A DNA stretch of 64,000 nt from a virus (taxonomy: Duplodnaviria > Caudoviricetes). Below are positions 14,817 through 26,077 of the stretch, one piece after another. Numbering within the stretch: position 1 is the stretch's first letter; each line of letters opens with the position of its first letter. The translations under genes were made by a program, and so were the position numbers. The notes under the pieces are model-generated. The model was not told the DNA's origin. It did no database searches and worked only from the letters and a program-made list of their open reading frames with translations. The DNA lies in IMG/VR virus record IMGVR_UViG_3300021255_002417, positions 1-64,000 of that record. One strand, given 5' to 3'.

Positions 14817-15008
14817 TTATTTATTATTTAATAATTTCTTAGATTGGGCTATAATAATTTCTGACATAGCTTTAATATTTTCAGCTATATTTAATACTTC
14901 TGTTAAATTATAATTATCATCCATAAATATAATTTCACGCAGTTGTTTACTTAATTTATTTATGATACCCTCTGCTGATTCAATGCAGCATTTAGCTTCA
15001 TCGTCCAT
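14817..15008 (-). CDS. Hypothetical protein
   Basis: 63-aa ORF coupled to the upstream MTase stop. Confidence 0.55.
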   Translation of the reverse strand: MDDEAKCCIESAEGIINKLSKQLREIIFMDDNYNLTEVLNIAENIKAMSEIIIAQSKKLLNNK

Positions 15009-16684
15009 TAATTAAACCATCTTATTTCAGGAAAACCTTTATATCCTTTTTTCCAAACAAACCAAGCATAACAAACAGCTGAAGCATTATTACTATTACT
15101 TACACCATTCATATAGCATTTCATTCTTGAAGTTGAAACCCAAACTCTTATTGGAGGATATTTGTCAAATAAATGTCTTCTGGATTTACCTTCAAGAAAT
15201 GTTAATTTAAGGAACATACAAACATATCTTCCATCATCAACAAGTGATAGCGCCTTTTCTACAAATGATTTTGCACAGTTACCACAAAAAAATTCTAATC
15301 CATTTCTTCGTAATAAAAATACACCATTCTTTTTCAAATTTAAACACCATACTTTACCAGTATATTCTACAGCACACTTATCATTTTTATTCGATGGGAA
15401 ATACATACGATTATATATACTATTTCTATTCTCATATATTATATAAAGTGCATGATTTATTCCATCGCTTGTTTTATATTTTGAATGTACAATATGTGAC
15501 AATAAACCAGTCTTTAATAAAAGCTCTTGTATATCTTCAGCCAGCTTTTTAGATGCAGTTCTAAAAATTCTAGCTTTAGATGTTTTTGTATTAAATAACG
15601 AACCATCACCAAAGAAATATGCATTAAGAAAACATGAAATTTGTTGTGATGTTAAATTCTTAATATCTTCAGGAATAAATTTATCTGCTGATTTTCCAAA
15701 TTGTTTTAAATAATGCCAAAGCTGTTCATTATGAATTTCAAAACTTATACATGGCGATTTTTTACCTTTTACATCAGCATATTCTTTATATGTAAACGGG
15801 AGTTTTGATAATATTTCTCGAACTCGATAAGCTGTTTTTTCTGATTGTTTTATAGTTACAGTTTTTCTATAATTATTATTTATATTAGTTGTATGTCTAC
15901 AACACCCATCTGCTAACCATAATCCAAAGAACTCAAGCCAGCTATTCATATTAATCTTAATTTCTTCTTTATATATAGGCTGTGCATGTTTACAACCAGC
16001 TATGCCAGGTAAAACAAAAATATCTTTTTGAATACCTTTCCATATATAACCAAGTTTTGGTATATAGTGTGCGCCTCTTATATATTTACTTTTTATTAGA
16101 TCATTATCTTTAATGCTAAGCTTATTGCTCTTAGCATCAAAAGCAAACATACGATGGTTATCAGTTACCATAATATCCATGTGACTTTTTTTAAAATGGT
16201 ACATCTTCTCATCGTCTGTTTTATCACGAATAATTATTGAGTTTATTGTACTCCATTCAAGTTCCATAGTATTTGGGTTAACAGATAAAATTTCATCAGA
16301 TTCTTTAATATCTGTATAATATAGCCAACCTCGCTTTGTATAACACTGTGTTTCAGAATCAAAGCAGTTATAGGGCGGGTTAGTAATAATATCAGCATTA
16401 TGCATTGGTGTTTCACACGTAAGAAAATCAAGAATCTCTATTCCATCTTTTCTAGCAATAATATCTGAATTTCTTACATGTTTTCCAGCTGCTGTAAATA
16501 CATCTGATAATGATAAGCTACCACATGCACACTCCCAAATATTATCTGATATATCTGGTTCCAATTGTAATAACCATTCTGCTGCTTTTGAATCTGATGA
16601 ATAAAAATCATGATCTGCTCTATCACAATCAGAATGATTGCTACATCCATTTGTTACAAAAAGTGAACTGCTACTTTTGCCCAT
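15008..16684 (-). CDS. N6-adenine DNA methyltransferase interrupted by an intein
   Basis: DFYSS, WECACG, DFL, DIITNPPY, FVEKAL, YAWFVW around a 363-aa insert. Confidence 0.88.
   Translation of the reverse strand: MGKSSSSLFVTNGCSNHSDCDRADHDFYSSDSKAAEWLLQLEPDISDNIWECACGSLSLSDVFTAAGKHVRNSDIIARKDGIEILDFLTCETPMHNADIITNPPYNCFDSETQCYTKRGWLYYTDIKESDEILSVNPNTMELEWSTINSIIIRDKTDDEKMYHFKKSHMDIMVTDNHRMFAFDAKSNKLSIKDNDLIKSKYIRGAHYIPKLGYIWKGIQKDIFVLPGIAGCKHAQPIYKEEIKINMNSWLEFFGLWLADGCCRHTTNINNNYRKTVTIKQSEKTAYRVREILSKLPFTYKEYADVKGKKSPCISFEIHNEQLWHYLKQFGKSADKFIPEDIKNLTSQQISCFLNAYFFGDGSLFNTKTSKARIFRTASKKLAEDIQELLLKTGLLSHIVHSKYKTSDGINHALYIIYENRNSIYNRMYFPSNKNDKCAVEYTGKVWCLNLKKNGVFLLRRNGLEFFCGNCAKSFVEKALSLVDDGRYVCMFLKLTFLEGKSRRHLFDKYPPIRVWVSTSRMKCYMNGVSNSNNASAVCYAWFVWKKGYKGFPEIRWFN
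15278..16366 (-). mobile_element. Intein with LAGLIDADG homing endonuclease domain
   Basis: Starts CFDSETQ (Cys107), ends ...NGLEFFCGN followed by Cys+1; internal WLEFFGLWLADG and FLNAYFFGDGS. Confidence 0.9.
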
Positions 16685-22561: not shown

Positions 22562-22634
22562 TGCCTCAAGAAAGATTCGAACTTCCGACCGCCGCATTAC
22601 AGGTGCGATGCTCTACCAACTGAGCTATTGAGGC
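22562..22634 (-). tRNA. tRNA-Thr(UGU), C33 variant
   Basis: GCCTCAA/TTGAGGC acceptor, anticodon arm TCGCA-CCTGTAA-TGCGG, T loop TTCGAAT. Confidence 0.85.
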
Positions 22635-22637
22635 AAA

Positions 22638-22722
22638 CGGAGAAAATAGGATTCGAACCTATAATACATTTACATGTATGACGGATTAGCAATCCGCTGC
22701 GATACCATTACGCCATTTCTCC
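22638..22722 (-). tRNA. tRNA-Ser(GCU)
   Basis: GGAGAAA/TTTCTCC acceptor, GCGGA-TTGCTAA-TCCGT, long variable arm, G73. Confidence 0.92.
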
Positions 22723-22818
22723 AAATAGCAAATTATATCATCACGACATTATTTGCTATAAACACTAAACACAACAATATAAGGAAGGTTCTACATAATA
22801 AAGCATTATAAATATAAT

Positions 22819-22852
22819 TGTCAACAGAGAGACTAGAACTCTCAAGCCTTTC
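22819..22852 (-). pseudogene. 3' remnant of a Leu-type tRNA gene
   Basis: GAAAGGCTT-GAGAG-TTCTAGT-CTCTC-TGTTGAC-A; acceptor strand complementary to GTCAACA at 23977. Confidence 0.7.
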
Positions 22853-23746
22853 CTACTTACGAATAAAGCATTTTGAATAAAATTCATGAAAGTGTTTTCT
22901 AATATAAGCCCCAGCTTTCTGTGAAGAAATACCAAAAATATTTGCTATCTTCTCAACCCAACCAAACTTTGAAAAATCAATATCTGATTCTAATATCAAA
23001 TTCCATCTAAAACTTTTTAGAGATTCATCCACTTTATTTCTATAGTGCTTATTGATTGTATGCACTTCTTTAAGTGGCTTACTATTTACTTTCTTACTAT
23101 GTAAAGCTTTGCTAAATGCCTGTTCGTCATTTATTTCATAAAAACAATCAGCAGGCTCATCATACCTAAAGAACTTACATCCTATTGTAGATATAATAAA
23201 GTTTTGTTTTACAAGATCATGCTGTTTTACTTTCTCTTTATGGTGACGAGCTTCATCATATTCAAATGCAATATTTAGTTCTCTGTCATAGCCATCAAGA
23301 AAATAAGGACCTACTGTAATCTCACCACCGTTCAATGCATGTTGTAAATGCCAACCCATCTTTTCATTTAAGCTATCAATGTACTCACACGCTTTATGAT
23401 TAAAATTGGCACTATGACCAACACGCTTCTTAGCAGCAAATGATAATTTAATTCGTGTCTCATCTGAAATTGTCTGTACAGGTTTGTCTATATGATTTGG
23501 GTTGCTTTTACAATATTTAATATGATTAGTTAACCCAGACTTTTTCGATGAAACATAACCGCAAAACTCGCACTTAAAATAACAACATGTATTTTGAGGA
23601 ACAGTTCTACCTAATGAATCTGTATGCAGTGAAAGTTTAGCTTCACATGATTTATAATGTAAATATAAATCATTTCTTGTTGATAACTCTGTATTACAAT
23701 ACTTACAAACCCATTTATATGACCTATTTGATTTACAATTACACAT
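22853..23746 (-). CDS. Freestanding endonuclease: C2H2-like Zn fingers, PD-(D/E)XK (Vsr/DUF559-like) domain, FSKFGWV C-terminal domain
   Basis: CKYC..H..C, CEFC..H..C, YFLDGYDRELNIAFEYDEARHH; ATG at 23746 follows AAAGGAGA. Confidence 0.75.
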   Translation of the reverse strand: MCNCKSNRSYKWVCKYCNTELSTRNDLYLHYKSCEAKLSLHTDSLGRTVPQNTCCYFKCEFCGYVSSKKSGLTNHIKYCKSNPNHIDKPVQTISDETRIKLSFAAKKRVGHSANFNHKACEYIDSLNEKMGWHLQHALNGGEITVGPYFLDGYDRELNIAFEYDEARHHKEKVKQHDLVKQNFIISTIGCKFFRYDEPADCFYEINDEQAFSKALHSKKVNSKPLKEVHTINKHYRNKVDESLKSFRWNLILESDIDFSKFGWVEKIANIFGISSQKAGAYIRKHFHEFYSKCFIRK

Positions 23747-23856
23747 AATCAATCTCCTTTTAACTTTATTAAAGAGTTACTGCAATAACTCTAATATGTG
23801 TGGTTAGATAGGTTGGAGATTCCTATCAACTGGTTGCAGCCAGCTGTCCCACTAAT
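23747..23856 (-). ncRNA. Structured leader RNA, copy 1
   Basis: Nearly identical to 25220..25331 with compensatory changes. Confidence 0.8.
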
Positions 23857-23859
23857 AAA

Positions 23860-23943
23860 TACCCAGAGAGGGAGTCGAACCCTCAAGTCCATAGGGGCAG
23901 TAGCTTCTAAAGCTACCCTCTTTACCAGTTTGAGTATCTGGGC
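23860..23943 (-). tRNA. tRNA-Leu(UAG)
   Basis: GCCCAGA/TCTGGGT acceptor, GTAGC-TTTAGAA-GCTAC, variable arm. Confidence 0.9.
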
Positions 23944-23950
23944 AAATAAC

Positions 23951-23977
23951 TGCGTTTACCAATTTCATCATGTTGAC
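23951..23977 (-). pseudogene. 5' remnant of a Leu-type tRNA gene
   Basis: GTCAACA-TG-ATGAAATTGGTAAAC; pairs with the 3' remnant at 22819..22852. Confidence 0.7.
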
Positions 23978-23982
23978 ATAAA

Positions 23983-24055
23983 TTGTGAGTATTGGATTCG
24001 AACCAATTCTACGAGTGTATGAGGCTCGTGTACTAACCTATTATACTAACTCACA
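23983..24055 (-). tRNA. tRNA with CAU anticodon (elongator Met or Ile2)
   Basis: TGTGAGT/ACTCACA acceptor, CGAGC-CTCATAC-ACTCG, T loop TTCGAAT. Confidence 0.8.
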
Positions 24056-24060
24056 TTAAA

Positions 24061-24092
24061 TCTAGGTAGTGGGATTTGAACCTGCGATCCTT
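24061..24092 (-). pseudogene. 3' remnant of a Pro-like tRNA gene overlapping the endonuclease C-terminus
   Basis: GCAGG-TTCAAAT-CCCAC-TACCTAG-A; acceptor strand pairs with CTAGGTG at 25431. Confidence 0.65.
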
Positions 24093-25219
24093 CTATATAC
24101 ATAATTTATAAGATCTGTTGAATTAACAACCTTATAAATTTGACGACGAGTTAAACCTGTAACTTTCGATACCTTTTCAACCCATCCAAATTTAGAAAGA
24201 TCTACGTCACTATTGAGTATTGTTTCCTTTCTAAAATTCATTTCTTCATGTGAAATTTTATTAGCGTTTAGACGACCTTTAGTGTCTAATAAACCTTTCT
24301 TTCCTGCTTCACTAATATGAAGCGCATGATCAAGTTCTTTTTGCTTTTTCAAATCATACTTAATAATAGCTTCTTCACTAATAGGTTGTATATCACATCC
24401 AATCTTATCGTGAAAGTAAATCTCAAGCTGTCTCTCAACACCGTCTTTTGGTATAATTCTTAATGTAGTAAAACCTAATGCATCAGCCTCTATGTCTTTT
24501 AATCTGTCTGTGTCTATAGATTTACTATGCCAATATTCACCATCTATTTCTATAATAAGATTAAATTGTGGTACAAAGAAATCAACATACCTTCTAAAAG
24601 AATCAGAAACAATCAGCTTATTATGTTCAATACATAATTGATGGCTAATTAACCAATCGTAGGCAACTTGCTCTGGATATGTCATTTTACTTTTATTACA
24701 AGAAACTCTTGCGTTTGGATGTTTTTCTGGATGTTCAAGATAAAGCTTTTTCTTTCTATCAGATTGAGCTTTTCTTCTTTCTTCAGTCCAAGGTAAATGA
24801 TGATCAGCCTGTTTTATTTTACCAGATCTAACATTCTCTGAGTATCTTTCAGCTTGTTGCTTAATAATATCACATGTATCTTTAGTTAAACCTTTGTTCC
24901 ATGCATGCTTACCACAATATTCAGCATGAGCTGACAGTTTATGTTCTTGTAATTCTCGTCTTGTTACGAATACTTCTTCACAATGACAACATTGCCAACC
25001 ATCTTTTGTAGTTATAAATCTATTTGGATTTAATCTGCAATGCTTTTCATGTACTGACAAGGCACATGGTCTATCAAAATTTTTATGACAAAACGCACAT
25101 TCTAATTTATCATAATTAGTTATAGAGTTATCATTTTCTTTACACCACTTAATATGGTTTGAATATGAAGACTTTAAATTAAACGATTTACCACATAGAC
25201 TACATATAAATTCACACAT
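24062..25219 (-). CDS. Freestanding endonuclease: three C2H2-like Zn fingers, DUF559-like PD-(D/E)XK domain, LSKFGWV C-terminal domain
   Basis: TYPEQVAYDWL, YVDFFVPQFNLIIEIDGEYWHS; paralog of 22853..23746. Confidence 0.8.
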   Translation of the reverse strand: MCEFICSLCGKSFNLKSSYSNHIKWCKENDNSITNYDKLECAFCHKNFDRPCALSVHEKHCRLNPNRFITTKDGWQCCHCEEVFVTRRELQEHKLSAHAEYCGKHAWNKGLTKDTCDIIKQQAERYSENVRSGKIKQADHHLPWTEERRKAQSDRKKKLYLEHPEKHPNARVSCNKSKMTYPEQVAYDWLISHQLCIEHNKLIVSDSFRRYVDFFVPQFNLIIEIDGEYWHSKSIDTDRLKDIEADALGFTTLRIIPKDGVERQLEIYFHDKIGCDIQPISEEAIIKYDLKKQKELDHALHISEAGKKGLLDTKGRLNANKISHEEMNFRKETILNSDVDLSKFGWVEKVSKVTGLTRRQIYKVVNSTDLINYVYRRIAGSNPTT

Positions 25220-25331
25220 TCTAACATCTCCTTTTAGCTTTATTAAAGAGTTACGGCAATAACTCTAAAGAAATAGTGGTTAGACAGATTGGAGATTTCT
25301 GTCAACTGGTTGCCGCCAGCTGTCCCACTAA
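25220..25331 (-). ncRNA. Structured leader RNA, copy 2
   Basis: TAGTGG/CCACTA outer stem, CAGCTGG/CCAGTTG, GACAGA/TCTGTC, AGAGTTA/TAACTCT. Confidence 0.8.
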
Positions 25332-25355
25332 GATTTAATAAATATATTCAATAAA

Positions 25356-25393
25356 TCGGAATAGAGAGTGTTACCCGGTTACACCACACTCAG
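25356..25393 (-). pseudogene. Truncated tRNA 5' half
   Basis: CTGAGTG-TG-GTGT-AACCGGGTA-ACAC-T-CTCTA-TTCCGA, then AT-rich sequence. Confidence 0.55.
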
Positions 25394-25409
25394 TAAATAT
25401 AAGGAACTC

Positions 25410-25431
25410 TACCAGGTTTCGCCACACCTAG
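25410..25431 (-). pseudogene. 5' remnant of a Pro-like tRNA gene
   Basis: CTAGGTG-TG-GCGAAACCTGGTA. Confidence 0.6.
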
Positions 25432-25441
25432 ATAAGATGTA

Positions 25442-25980: not shown

Positions 25981-26052
25981 ATACCATGAAAGATTCGAAC
26001 TTCCGACCGCCGCATTACAGGTGCGATGCTCTACCAACTGAGCTATTGAGGC
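25981..26052 (-). pseudogene. Chimeric second copy of tRNA-Thr(UGU) with a non-matching acceptor 3' strand
   Basis: Identical to 22570..22634 up to the T stem, then ATGGTAT instead of TTGAGGC. Confidence 0.7.
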
Positions 26053-26077
26053 AAACGGAGAAAATAGGATTCGAACC
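25988..26077. repeat. 90-bp exact direct repeat of 22570..22659
   Basis: Both ends fall in or next to T arms (TTCGAA). Confidence 0.9.

Follow-up and report, generated by a model that had tools for sequence, protein, structure and literature searches.

A conserved double-pseudoknot leader, probably a translational brake, upstream of homing endonuclease genes in uncultured phages

A conserved folded RNA of about 95 nt was found upstream of homing endonuclease genes (HEGs) in many uncultured phages. Two copies lie on the minus strand of the window, the 64,000-nt stretch of the IMG/VR virus record IMGVR_UViG_3300021255_002417 that was analyzed, at about 23744-23852 (leader 1) and about 25217-25331 (leader 2). 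At the level of sequence comparison, its fold, both of its tertiary pairings, its association with HEGs and its adjacency to tRNA genes were established. The leader is probably a cis-acting double-pseudoknot translational brake at the 5' edge of free-standing HEG cassettes, and it most likely keeps the nucleases at a low level. We infer that the pairing represses translation and that the repression is constitutive (leaky) rather than switched.

Both leaders consist of a three-way junction (P1, H1 and H2) followed by a hairpin, H3 (Table 1). A 21-nt H1 pattern had exactly 2 matches in the window, compared with 0 expected. The stems that the initial annotation listed for the two leaders were borne out on the minus strand: the outer stem P1 (GUGG/CCAC in leader 1 and UAGUGG/CCACUA in leader 2), H1 (CAGCUGG/CCAGUUG), H3 (AGAGUUA/UAACUCU) and the covarying H2, in which AUAGG/CCUAU of leader 1 and ACAGA/UCUGU of leader 2 differ by two compensatory pairs. 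The Shine-Dalgarno (SD) sequence, GGAGAU(U), is matched by a complementary H2 loop, AAUCUCCAA; their duplex has 6 bp (-9.3 kcal/mol) in leader 2 and 7 bp (-9.8 kcal/mol) in leader 1. A generic 16S tail on the same SD sites gave -8.8 kcal/mol (leader 2) and -11.3 kcal/mol (leader 1), about equal to the loop-SD duplex. The distance from the loop to the SD is about 57-65 nt rather than the 45 nt or so initially estimated.

Table 1. Positions of the two leaders, their parts and the downstream ORFs in the window
Feature	Position	Strand	Basis or remark
Leader 2, P1 5' strand to ATG of the 385-aa endonuclease ORF	25217-25331	-	CM match 25242-25334, 101 bits
Leader 2 P1, 5' strand UAGUGG	25325-25330 (partner CCACUA 25274-25279)	-	5/6 P1 pairs covary in relatives
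Leader 2 H1, stem CAGCUGG/CCAGUUG with conserved G.U	25303-25322 (loop CGGCAA 25310-25315)	-	Loop fully complementary to that of H3
Leader 2 H2, stem ACAGA/UCUGU	25284-25302 (anti-SD loop AAUCUCCAA 25289-25297)	-	5/5 stem pairs covary
Leader 2 junction strand CUAA, three-way-junction core with GA 25323-25324	25280-25283	-	Kept across CM matches
Leader 2 H3, stem AGAGUUA/UAACUCU	25247-25266 (loop UUGCCG 25254-25259)	-	7/7 stem pairs covary; loop kisses H1 loop
Leader 2 A-rich tract UUAAUAAAGCUAAAA, H3-to-SD interval	25232-25246	-	Conserved
Leader 2 SD GGAGAU, H2-loop target	25226-25231 (start ATG 25219-25217)	-	Sequence and pairing
385-aa homing-endonuclease-like ORF; C2H2 zinc fingers and DUF559/Vsr-like nuclease domain	24062-25219	-	Pfam; PHROG homing endonuclease families
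Leader 1, whole element	23744-23852	-	CM match 23768-23858, 91 bits
Leader 1 P1, GUGG with CCAC	23849-23852 with 23800-23803	-	
Leader 1 H1	23827-23846 (loop CUGCAA 23834-23839)	-	
Leader 1 H2	23808-23826 (loop 23813-23821)	-	
Leader 1 CUAA	23804-23807	-	
Leader 1 H3	23773-23792 (loop UUGCAG 23780-23785)	-	
Leader 1 A-rich tract	23758-23772	-	
Leader 1 SD GGAGAUU and ATG	23751-23757 and 23746-23744	-	
297-aa homing-endonuclease-like ORF; C2H2 zinc finger	22853-23746	-	Pfam; PHROG 14736

The C-terminal domain of the 297-aa ORF is common to the 385-aa ORF. For the former, which had been listed as 299 aa, ATG 23746 is more likely the start than TTG 23752, because of the SD spacing and because the TTG would overlap the SD.

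About 50 distinct relatives, including one from the Prevotella megaphage Lak-A1, were gathered from viral and metagenome contigs. Most were found by sequence patterns, which biases the positions that appear invariant. The carriers are very different and range from contigs of 146-424 kb to the Lak megaphage of 540 kb. When four different leaders were searched by blastn against 50,697 phage records, only Lak megaphage MAGs matched. When 185,579 prokaryote genomes were scanned with the pattern, 0 matches were obtained, so at that stringency nothing suggests that cellular or prophage DNA carries the motif. The homing endonucleases encoded downstream belong to catalytic types that are not related to one another, GIY-YIG, HNH and PD-(D/E)xK (as DUF559), which argues for a need common to all HEGs and not for recognition by one protein.

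All four helices covary. Among 38 distinct relatives, 97.3% of the cells were paired and 26 of the 31 pairs showed compensatory changes, compared with 75.7% paired cells in shuffles and 28-48% with slid partners; none of 500 shuffles reached the observed value. With this covariation and both window copies present, the leader is a real, conserved and structured RNA, as the initial annotation had claimed. On the other strand the conserved G.U of H1 would read A.C, which ties the fold to the sense RNA. The stability gain of nested MFE folds over shuffles was not significant (z = -1.2 and -1.0), so the case rests on the comparative evidence. The local nested SD pairing in the MFE fold of leader 2 is not conserved. 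A helix there between the U-rich linker and the SD was set aside as incidental, relatives lacking it, and so was a 7-bp helix between the linker of leader 1 and its AUG region. As the flanks lack conservation, a candidate outer helix pairing AAUAAA with a U-rich 5' flank was discarded.

The invariant junction core reads GGACA...UG(A/G)...CUAAC. GGACA...CUAAC was kept in all 45 CM matches, six of which were retrieved by CM or BLAST searches in which it was not a requirement. These six (two extra G004 copies, G003, G005, Lak-A1 and an arm-swap copy) differ in the H1 stem, the loops or the roles of the arms. Past H3, an A-rich tract (58% A) contained an AAAG-type match (UAAAG, AAAAG, AAAGG or CAAG) within 22 nt in 38 of 40 distinct copies.

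The first tertiary pairing joins the 6-nt loop of H1 to the 6-nt loop of H3, its exact complement (CUGCAA/UUGCAG in leader 1 and CGGCAA/UUGCCG in leader 2). This kissing pair occurs in about 15 sequence forms. It was left out of the covariance model, and among 38 distinct sequences it was 99.1% paired, with all 6 pairs covarying. Watson-Crick complementarity of the two loops is thus kept by covariation. In an independent set of relatives, found with a different H1 pattern, the loops were exact complements in 12 of 12, adding 7 further sequence forms. A kissing interaction had been suggested initially; it is present as this H1-H3 loop pair, which the initial annotation did not contain. Fully paired loop-loop kissing complexes of 6-7 nt are formed by HIV TAR-TAR* and ColE1 RNA I/RNA II, which are intermolecular (antisense or engineered). 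The H1 and H3 loops likewise pair along their whole length, but their kiss is intramolecular and places the neighbouring strand on a second loop.

The second tertiary pairing involves the H2 loop. In the first set, cognate loop-target duplexes had a mean energy of -6.93 kcal/mol, whereas permuted partners gave -5.65 +/- 0.26, a background inflated by the readiness of pyrimidine-rich loops to pair with purine-rich SDs, and 0 of 20000 were as good. Control windows gave -3.3 to -3.7 kcal/mol and shuffled loops -4.03 kcal/mol. In the independent set, the cognate score was 7.5 compared with 5.43 for permuted partners (again 0/20000). Of 37 distinct copies, 35 had the target between positions -16 and +8 relative to the start, and 24 had at least 6 contiguous loop-target pairs.

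The H2 loop varies together with its target, which, depending on the phage, is either the SD or the AUG itself. AUG-targeting loop:target pairs include CCAUAAU:AUUAUGG, UUGUCAUGAU:AUCAUGACAA and, in Lak-A1, AAUUCCA:UGGAAUU. The initial description of an invariant loop complementary to an invariant SD thus holds as regards complementarity, but the two are invariant only between the paralogous window copies and co-vary across relatives. Its assignment of the loop as an anti-RBS is upheld by the co-variation of loop and target over about 50 relatives; an absence of such loop-SD covariation in homologs was to have counted against it. The target is the SD where one exists, and the AUG instead in SD-less contexts. 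In a natural arm-swap copy (L016:11314-11418), the H1 loop pairs with 9 nt of the SD region and the H2 loop kisses H3. Loop-target pairing is weak in a few copies, L051, L050/L014 (4 bp) and L036/L047; in the last pair, recombination appears to have placed another ORF and SD behind the leader.

The leader starts 0-11 nt past a tRNA gene in 25 of 35 copies, and about a quarter of the 35 have no adjoining tRNA. In the window, the 3' end of a tRNA-Leu gene at 23859 lies 6 nt from P1 of leader 1. Many copies are preceded by a complete tRNA, tRNA fragments flank the cassettes, and the compared sequences 5' of the leaders are unrelated from site to site. A scan for sigma-70 promoters and intrinsic terminators near the window copies gave only chance-level signals, with a consensus that may not be the phage's own. 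These results fit the setting proposed initially, read-through from tRNA promoters. There was no indication that tRNA processing relieves the repression, as had also been suggested: P1 does not overlap the tRNA, and the copies without an adjoining tRNA also speak against it.

We propose that the three-way junction with its invariant core would fold first during transcription. H3 would form next, and its loop would kiss that of arm H1. The kiss would dock the following A-rich strand, so that the initiation region could pair with the loop of arm H2 through the SD, or through the AUG where an SD is absent. The double pseudoknot would then compete with the 30S subunit and allow only a trickle of nuclease to be made. 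Such low output would suit the usual setting, where the gene forms the 3' trailer of a tRNA operon whose expression is high.

Burial of the SD in an aptamer pseudoknot is known from the SAM-II, preQ1-II and preQ1-III riboswitches. As in these, the RBS would be sequestered by the loop of an upstream folded domain and not by a simple hairpin; in contrast to them, the leader has two separate loop-mediated tertiary helices, no ligand is indicated, and there is no covariance-model similarity. It had been suggested that the motif might be undescribed, and the searches agree with this. A scan of the window region with Rfam 15 gave nothing over the leaders at E<=10, leader 2 alone gave only chance-level matches below gathering score (18.1 vs 40 bits and below), and nothing in 20 related loci reached gathering score. 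The best sub-threshold match was cow-rumen-4 (RF02948) in the Lak-A1 copy, at 21.6 compared with a gathering score of 48.5 bits. It resembles the leader in its rumen-metagenome origin and as an element with a hairpin, an A-rich spacer and an SD, but it was rejected because the weak match does not extend beyond H3 and the tail and was not seen in the window copies. No paper on the motif was found in the literature; the list that Fremin et al. 2023 (PMC10690425) drew from IMG/VR, with 8,495 candidate structured RNAs, may contain it without a name.

RBS-sequestering hairpins control the T4 genes I-TevI, I-TevII, I-TevIII and segB and mobE of Aeh1, and segB of the T-even phages also sits in a tRNA gene cluster (PMC2988022). 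The leader shares with these a cis RNA structure that would occlude the SD of a phage HEG transcribed by read-through. However, the T-even structures are local hairpins that contain the RBS, are peculiar to each gene and are bypassed by an internal late promoter, whereas the leader is a portable module of about 95 nt common to many unrelated endonuclease genes and phages, with no internal promoter evident. Its SD or AUG is not part of a local stem-loop but pairs with a hairpin loop that lies about 55-65 nt upstream, on the far side of H3.

The strict conservation of the unpaired junction bases and of the A-rich tract seems to exceed the needs of a simple brake, a hint that the leader may do more, for example act as a sensor or resist nucleases. 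It is possible but rather unlikely that the same fold acts as a switch, its core binding a metabolite, an ion or a protein that stabilizes or destabilizes the double pseudoknot and so turns nuclease synthesis off or on with the state of infection. Unpaired junction bases are typically conserved at this level in the aptamers of riboswitches, and here GGACA, UG(A/G) and CUAAC are kept in every CM match, including those from searches not requiring them, and the A-rich tract is conserved as well. However, no conserved alternative structure was seen, no known aptamer matched, the gene context yielded no candidate ligand, and the orienting of two arms to dock two consecutive downstream segments could alone explain the conserved junction. 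A switch of this kind would be compatible with the brake, as an added layer. Distinctly unlikely, in our judgement, is a main role in mRNA protection, in which the knot would block 5'-to-3' or 5'-end-dependent decay (by RNase J or E) of the 5'-monophosphate message left by tRNA 3' processing. The position of most copies just past a tRNA 3' end would suit this, and a three-way junction with a double pseudoknot is also the general description of class 1 and 2 xrRNAs (PMC12397905); flavivirus xrRNAs block Xrn1. The leader resembles these RNAs in having a three-way junction (P1/H1/H2) locked by two pseudoknots, one of them from a hairpin loop to a downstream segment (H2 loop to initiation region, besides H1 loop to H3 loop). 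Yet one xrRNA pseudoknot uses a 5' end threaded through a ring, whereas both of those in the leader use hairpin loops and downstream partners. No pairing that would thread the 5' end was identified, and an informal look noticed no conserved complementarity between 5' flank and junction. The copies without an adjoining tRNA also argue against protection. The second pseudoknot always falls on the SD or AUG, the translation start region, and not on an arbitrary downstream segment, which points to translation as the controlled step.

A temporal bypass in the manner of T4 is very unlikely. Read-through would be silenced, and a late promoter in or after the structure would give short translatable transcripts without the inhibitory arms, a logic documented for the T4 and Aeh1 genes named above (PMC2988022). 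The conserved AAAG-N-UAAAA tract would be an example of a site for such a promoter. While a conserved A/T-rich element does lie between H3 and the SD, it is conserved across very different phages, which are unlikely to have a common promoter consensus, its distance from the SD is only about 0-7 nt, so that the transcripts would have almost no leader, and sigma-70-like signals were not above chance. We consider it extremely improbable that the leader, instead of being a translational operator, belongs to a group I intron, or to a self-cleaving ribozyme, that carries the endonuclease ORF. Flanking tRNA fragments would fit, and small ribozymes, too, typically have conserved junction cores, but the pairing with the initiation region would stay unexplained and many copies follow a complete tRNA. 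The reading was rejected because neither the two window leaders nor those of 20 related loci coincide with a match to any intron or ribozyme family and because the upstream flanks are unrelated between sites. Intron_gpI (RF00028), which models the conserved P3-P9 catalytic core that would flank the ORF, did not cover the window leaders and had no match in the 20 loci, their ORFs and downstream flanks included.

The leader, as a probable translational brake, bears on how free-standing HEGs are kept at low expression, the means of which are known for only a handful of T-even genes, each with its own hairpin. It would be a portable RNA module serving GIY-YIG, HNH and PD-(D/E)xK genes in phages up to the 540-kb Lak megaphages. 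Its anti-RBS loop retargets to a signal of the host ribosome, SD or AUG, and its arms can exchange roles, so that it would be a natural, compact and programmable translational off-module. Double-pseudoknot folding could be studied cleanly on it, and it would be a marker by which HEG cassettes can be recognized in metagenomes. A tentative and on balance doubtful extension is that the core and the A-rich tract make the leader a sensor plus brake, either a riboswitch-like or factor-gated RNA class for selfish nuclease genes or a bacterial-virus counterpart of xrRNAs. In the latter case, the RNA would both shield the tRNA-processed 5' end and gate translation. Under this extension, homing endonuclease output would be tuned to the state of the infected cell.

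The 22.5- to 26.5-kb region of the window (minus strand) is a phage tRNA gene cluster, in which ARAGORN called 9 tRNAs and Infernal 13. The source IMG/VR viral record spans 72.5 kb in all, with an estimated completeness of ~34%, and the family A DNA polymerase of the window shows only ~23-27% identity with the enzymes of cultured phages. Two paralogous homing-endonuclease-like ORFs sit amid the tRNAs. Both contain C2H2 zinc fingers and match PHROG homing/HNH endonuclease families, and ORF 2 has a DUF559/Vsr-like PD-(D/E)xK domain. For ORF 1, the ATG at 23746 is a better start than the TTG of the ORF listing, because the TTG overlaps the Shine-Dalgarno (SD) sequence. A leader of ~110 nt precedes each ORF, with 88% identity between the two. 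The LAGLIDADG_3 ORF elsewhere in the window, which may be an intein or a further homing endonuclease, has no leader copy; therefore, the leader is not used by every mobile nuclease of this phage.

Coordinates of the features discussed (window positions unless a relative's locus, L, or an accession is named)
Feature	Position	Strand	Remarks
ORF 1	22853-23746	-	homing-endonuclease-like; 297 aa if ATG start
ORF 2	24062-25219	-	homing-endonuclease-like; 385 aa
Leader 1	23744-23852	-
Leader 2	25217-25331	-
A-rich tract	25232-25246 and 23758-23772	-	UUAAUAAAG(C/U)UAAAA, between H3 and SD
LAGLIDADG_3 ORF	15008-16684	-	558 aa
Direct repeat	22567-22659 / 25985-26077		93 nt, 99% identical; tRNA sequence flanking both cassettes
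End of ORF 2	24062-24090		inside T-arm-like sequence (...GSNPTT, then stop)
tRNA-like 5' portion	25332-25437		upstream of leader 2
Sigma-70-like match	22795-22824	-	TTGACA-18-TATTAT, 11/12; best of the region; just downstream of ORF 1, upstream of tRNA-Ser
tRNA 3'-end-like piece	L055:2440-2480		genome G006; behind endonuclease ORF
Arm-swap copy	L016:11314-11418		H1 and H2 roles exchanged
Half-motif	L016:9251-9273	-	P1 5' strand and H1 only, followed by unrelated A-rich sequence; upstream of clamp-loader-like ORF (MSEKKKCSLWTEAFRPQTIKD...)
Near-identical leader 2 copy	L005:~585-700 (G001 134336-134428)	-	only a 67-aa N-terminal piece of an endonuclease follows, running into a tRNA gene; G-to-U change in P1 breaks the invariant G-C pair
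Lak-A1 copy	MK250015.1, 499142-499256		precedes zinc-finger ORF with in-frame TAG codons (L063:1626-1760)
HEARO RNA	L046:4056-4252		RF02033, 97.7 bits; ~2 kb from motif copy, same phage tRNA region

On reading the sequences, we found all helices named in the initial annotation in both window leaders: P1, H1 and H2 of the three-way junction and the hairpin H3 after it. The H1 pattern occurred twice in the window (0 expected), and a covariance model (CM) search of the window found leaders 1 and 2 as the only copies. Since two copies cannot establish a structure, more relatives were gathered. The H1-based pattern retrieved 9 viral and 33 metagenome contigs, with 0 matches among 185,579 prokaryote genomes. 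A covariance model, R1, then found more divergent copies within the same viral genomes, namely, three in one complete 146-kb phage and one with swapped arms. A blastn search added a copy in Prevotella megaphage Lak-A1. TAG is recoded in Lak megaphages, and the TAG codons of the ORF behind this copy, whose record is unannotated, are as expected from such recoding. A second pattern, from the divergent H1 stem, brought in 10 further viral contigs, the longest of 424 kb; these served as an independent test set. The half-motif of L016 is probably a decayed remnant, and the L005 locus looks like a cassette in decay.

In the CM alignment (45 hits, 38 distinct), 97.3% of the cells in the nested helices were paired, compared with 75.7% for column shuffles and 28-48% for slid partners, and 26 of the 31 pairs showed compensatory change. 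An earlier MAFFT alignment gave the same covariation picture. In 36 of 38 sequences H1 retains a G.U pair; since the opposite strand would have A.C at this position, it is the sense RNA of the endonuclease gene that folds. At the junction, G-GA precedes H1, UG(A/G) follows it and CUAA-C precedes the 3' strand of P1. These bases were unchanged in 45/45 hits, 6 of which had been obtained by CM or BLAST searches with no requirement for them. Thermodynamic folding of leader 2 yielded the junction and H3. Because the folding energies of the window leaders did not differ significantly from those of shuffles, the structural case rests on the comparative evidence, which argues that the nested structure is real.

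The initial annotation had overlooked a pairing between the H1 and H3 loops. The loops of H1 and H3, each of 6 nt, are exact reverse complements: CUGCAA/UUGCAG in leader 1 and CGGCAA/UUGCCG in leader 2. In the first set, an exact H1-loop complement lay downstream in 33/35 copies; one more matched at 5/6, and one locus was truncated. This kissing helix, which is absent from the CM itself, was 99.1% paired in the CM alignment with 6/6 pairs covarying. The independent set had the exact complement in 12/12 copies and added forms including UUCCCG/CGGGAA, CUCCUA/UAGGAG, UCCCCA/UGGGGA and UUAGUG/CACUAA. Because the H1 and H3 stems are not complementary to each other, the pairing is an intramolecular loop-loop contact; a long helix formed in place of the two hairpins would not explain it.

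The H2 loop pairs with the translation start region. In the window, the loop AAUCUCCAA complements GGAGAU(U) over 6 bp in leader 2 (-9.3 kcal/mol) and 7 bp in leader 1 (-9.8), close in strength to the duplexes of a generic 16S 3' tail with these sites. The distance between loop and SD is ~57-65 nt, not ~45 nt as the initial annotation stated, and the loop it called invariant varies among relatives together with its target: AUCUCC with GGAGAU, UUCUCC with GGAGAA, UACUC with GAGUA, AUUUCUC with GAGAGAU, UAACCUU with AAGGUUA, and UACCUCU with AGAGGUA. In copies without an evident SD, the loop is instead complementary to sequence around the start codon (CCAUAAU:AUUAUGG, UUGUCAUGAU:AUCAUGACAA, UUUCCAUAA:UUAUGGAAA, UUCAUUC:GAAUGAA and, in Lak-A1, AAUUCCA:UGGAAUU).

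For the 33 distinct loop-target pairs of the first set, the cognate duplexes averaged -6.93 kcal/mol, compared with -5.65 +/- 0.26 for permuted partners (0/20000 as good), -4.03 +/- 0.27 for shuffled loops and -3.3 to -3.7 for the same loops paired with control windows from coding or upstream sequence. This supports the proposal of the H2 loop as an anti-SD of the endonuclease ribosome-binding site. The cognate advantage persisted in eight loops lacking a CUCC or UCUC core (p ~0.0009) and in the independent set (score 7.5 versus 5.43; 0/20000). Of 37 distinct copies, 35 had their target within -16 to +8 of the start, and 24 had at least 6 contiguous pairs. Exceptions were L051 and L050/L014, with weak pairing, and L036 and L047, in which a leader that is otherwise identical stands before another ORF with another SD; the latter two look like recent recombinants.

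In the arm-swap copy, the H1 loop UUACUCCAAUGU forms 9 bp with ACAUUGGAG at the SD, the kissing partner of the H3 loop (CGGCAA) is the H2 loop (UUGCCG), and the junction core is kept. Judged from these pairings, what is conserved is the design, in which H3 is held by one arm and the ribosome landing site by the other. The A-rich tract, roughly (U)AAAG-N-UAAAA, lies between H3 and the start region in distant phages as well; an AAAG-containing match was found in 38/40 distinct copies, and the arm-swap copy lacks the tract.

Downstream of the motif lie homing endonuclease genes from unrelated catalytic families: zinc-finger/DUF559 PD-(D/E)xK, NUMOD3-bearing (with a PHROG HNH/homing-endonuclease match or visible HH(I/L)xP motif), GIY-YIG with NUMOD3, DUF723 and, below threshold, DUF7487/endonuclease-I-like. 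This speaks against autoregulation by a particular protein; a need that all such genes share fits better. Leader copies 92-98% identical over ~115 nt precede proteins that are <=25-40% identical or unalignable, and the DNA upstream of near-identical copies is unrelated; the window and L033, at one site, have upstream flank and leader in common and different endonuclease ORFs. By these comparisons the leader behaves as a discrete module. Fragments resembling tRNAs border the cassettes (see table).

In 25/35 copies a tRNA gene, of 11 isotypes in all, ends 7-21 nt before the junction, with P1 starting 0-11 nt after the tRNA; the rest have no adjoining tRNA. A scan around the window copies for sigma-70-like promoters, which may differ from those of the phage, and for intrinsic terminators gave no signal above chance. 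Since copies mostly adjoin tRNAs and such signals did not exceed chance, the endonuclease messages are probably 3' trailers of tRNA operon transcripts. The region's best sigma-70-like match is a candidate promoter that may restart transcription of the distal tRNAs.

The best-supported reading of these sequences is a double pseudoknot that would form co-transcriptionally and hide the SD or AUG from the 30S subunit, throttling the output of a nuclease gene lying in a strongly transcribed operon. In function it comes nearest to the RBS-sequestering hairpins of T4 I-TevI, I-TevII, I-TevIII and segB and of Aeh1 mobE; those hairpins are local, gene-specific and bypassed by an internal late promoter (PMC2988022). 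Three features go beyond a plain brake, namely, the invariant junction core, the A-rich tract in nearly all distinct copies and the usual site directly after a tRNA processing point. Because of them we keep other readings alive. A ligand- or factor-gated switch is unlikely; a protective knot, suggested by analogy with the three-way junction and double pseudoknot of xrRNAs (PMC12397905), seems quite improbable, and a T4-style bypass by an internal promoter slightly more so. An intron or ribozyme is very unlikely, given the lack of a Rfam intron or ribozyme match at the leaders of the window and in 20 related loci and the unrelated upstream flanks.

The initial annotation had raised the possibility of an undescribed motif, and in scans of the leader region of the window, of 20 related loci and of leader 2 and the Lak-A1 copy by themselves no Rfam 15 family matched. 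We found no description of the motif in the literature; the text of a 2023 IMG/VR catalogue of 8,495 candidate structured RNAs (PMC10690425) has no such motif, and its tables may hold it as an unnamed entry. We regard the leader as a new architecture for a known regulatory principle; it is widespread in uncultured phages, and the sequence evidence for how it works is unusually direct.
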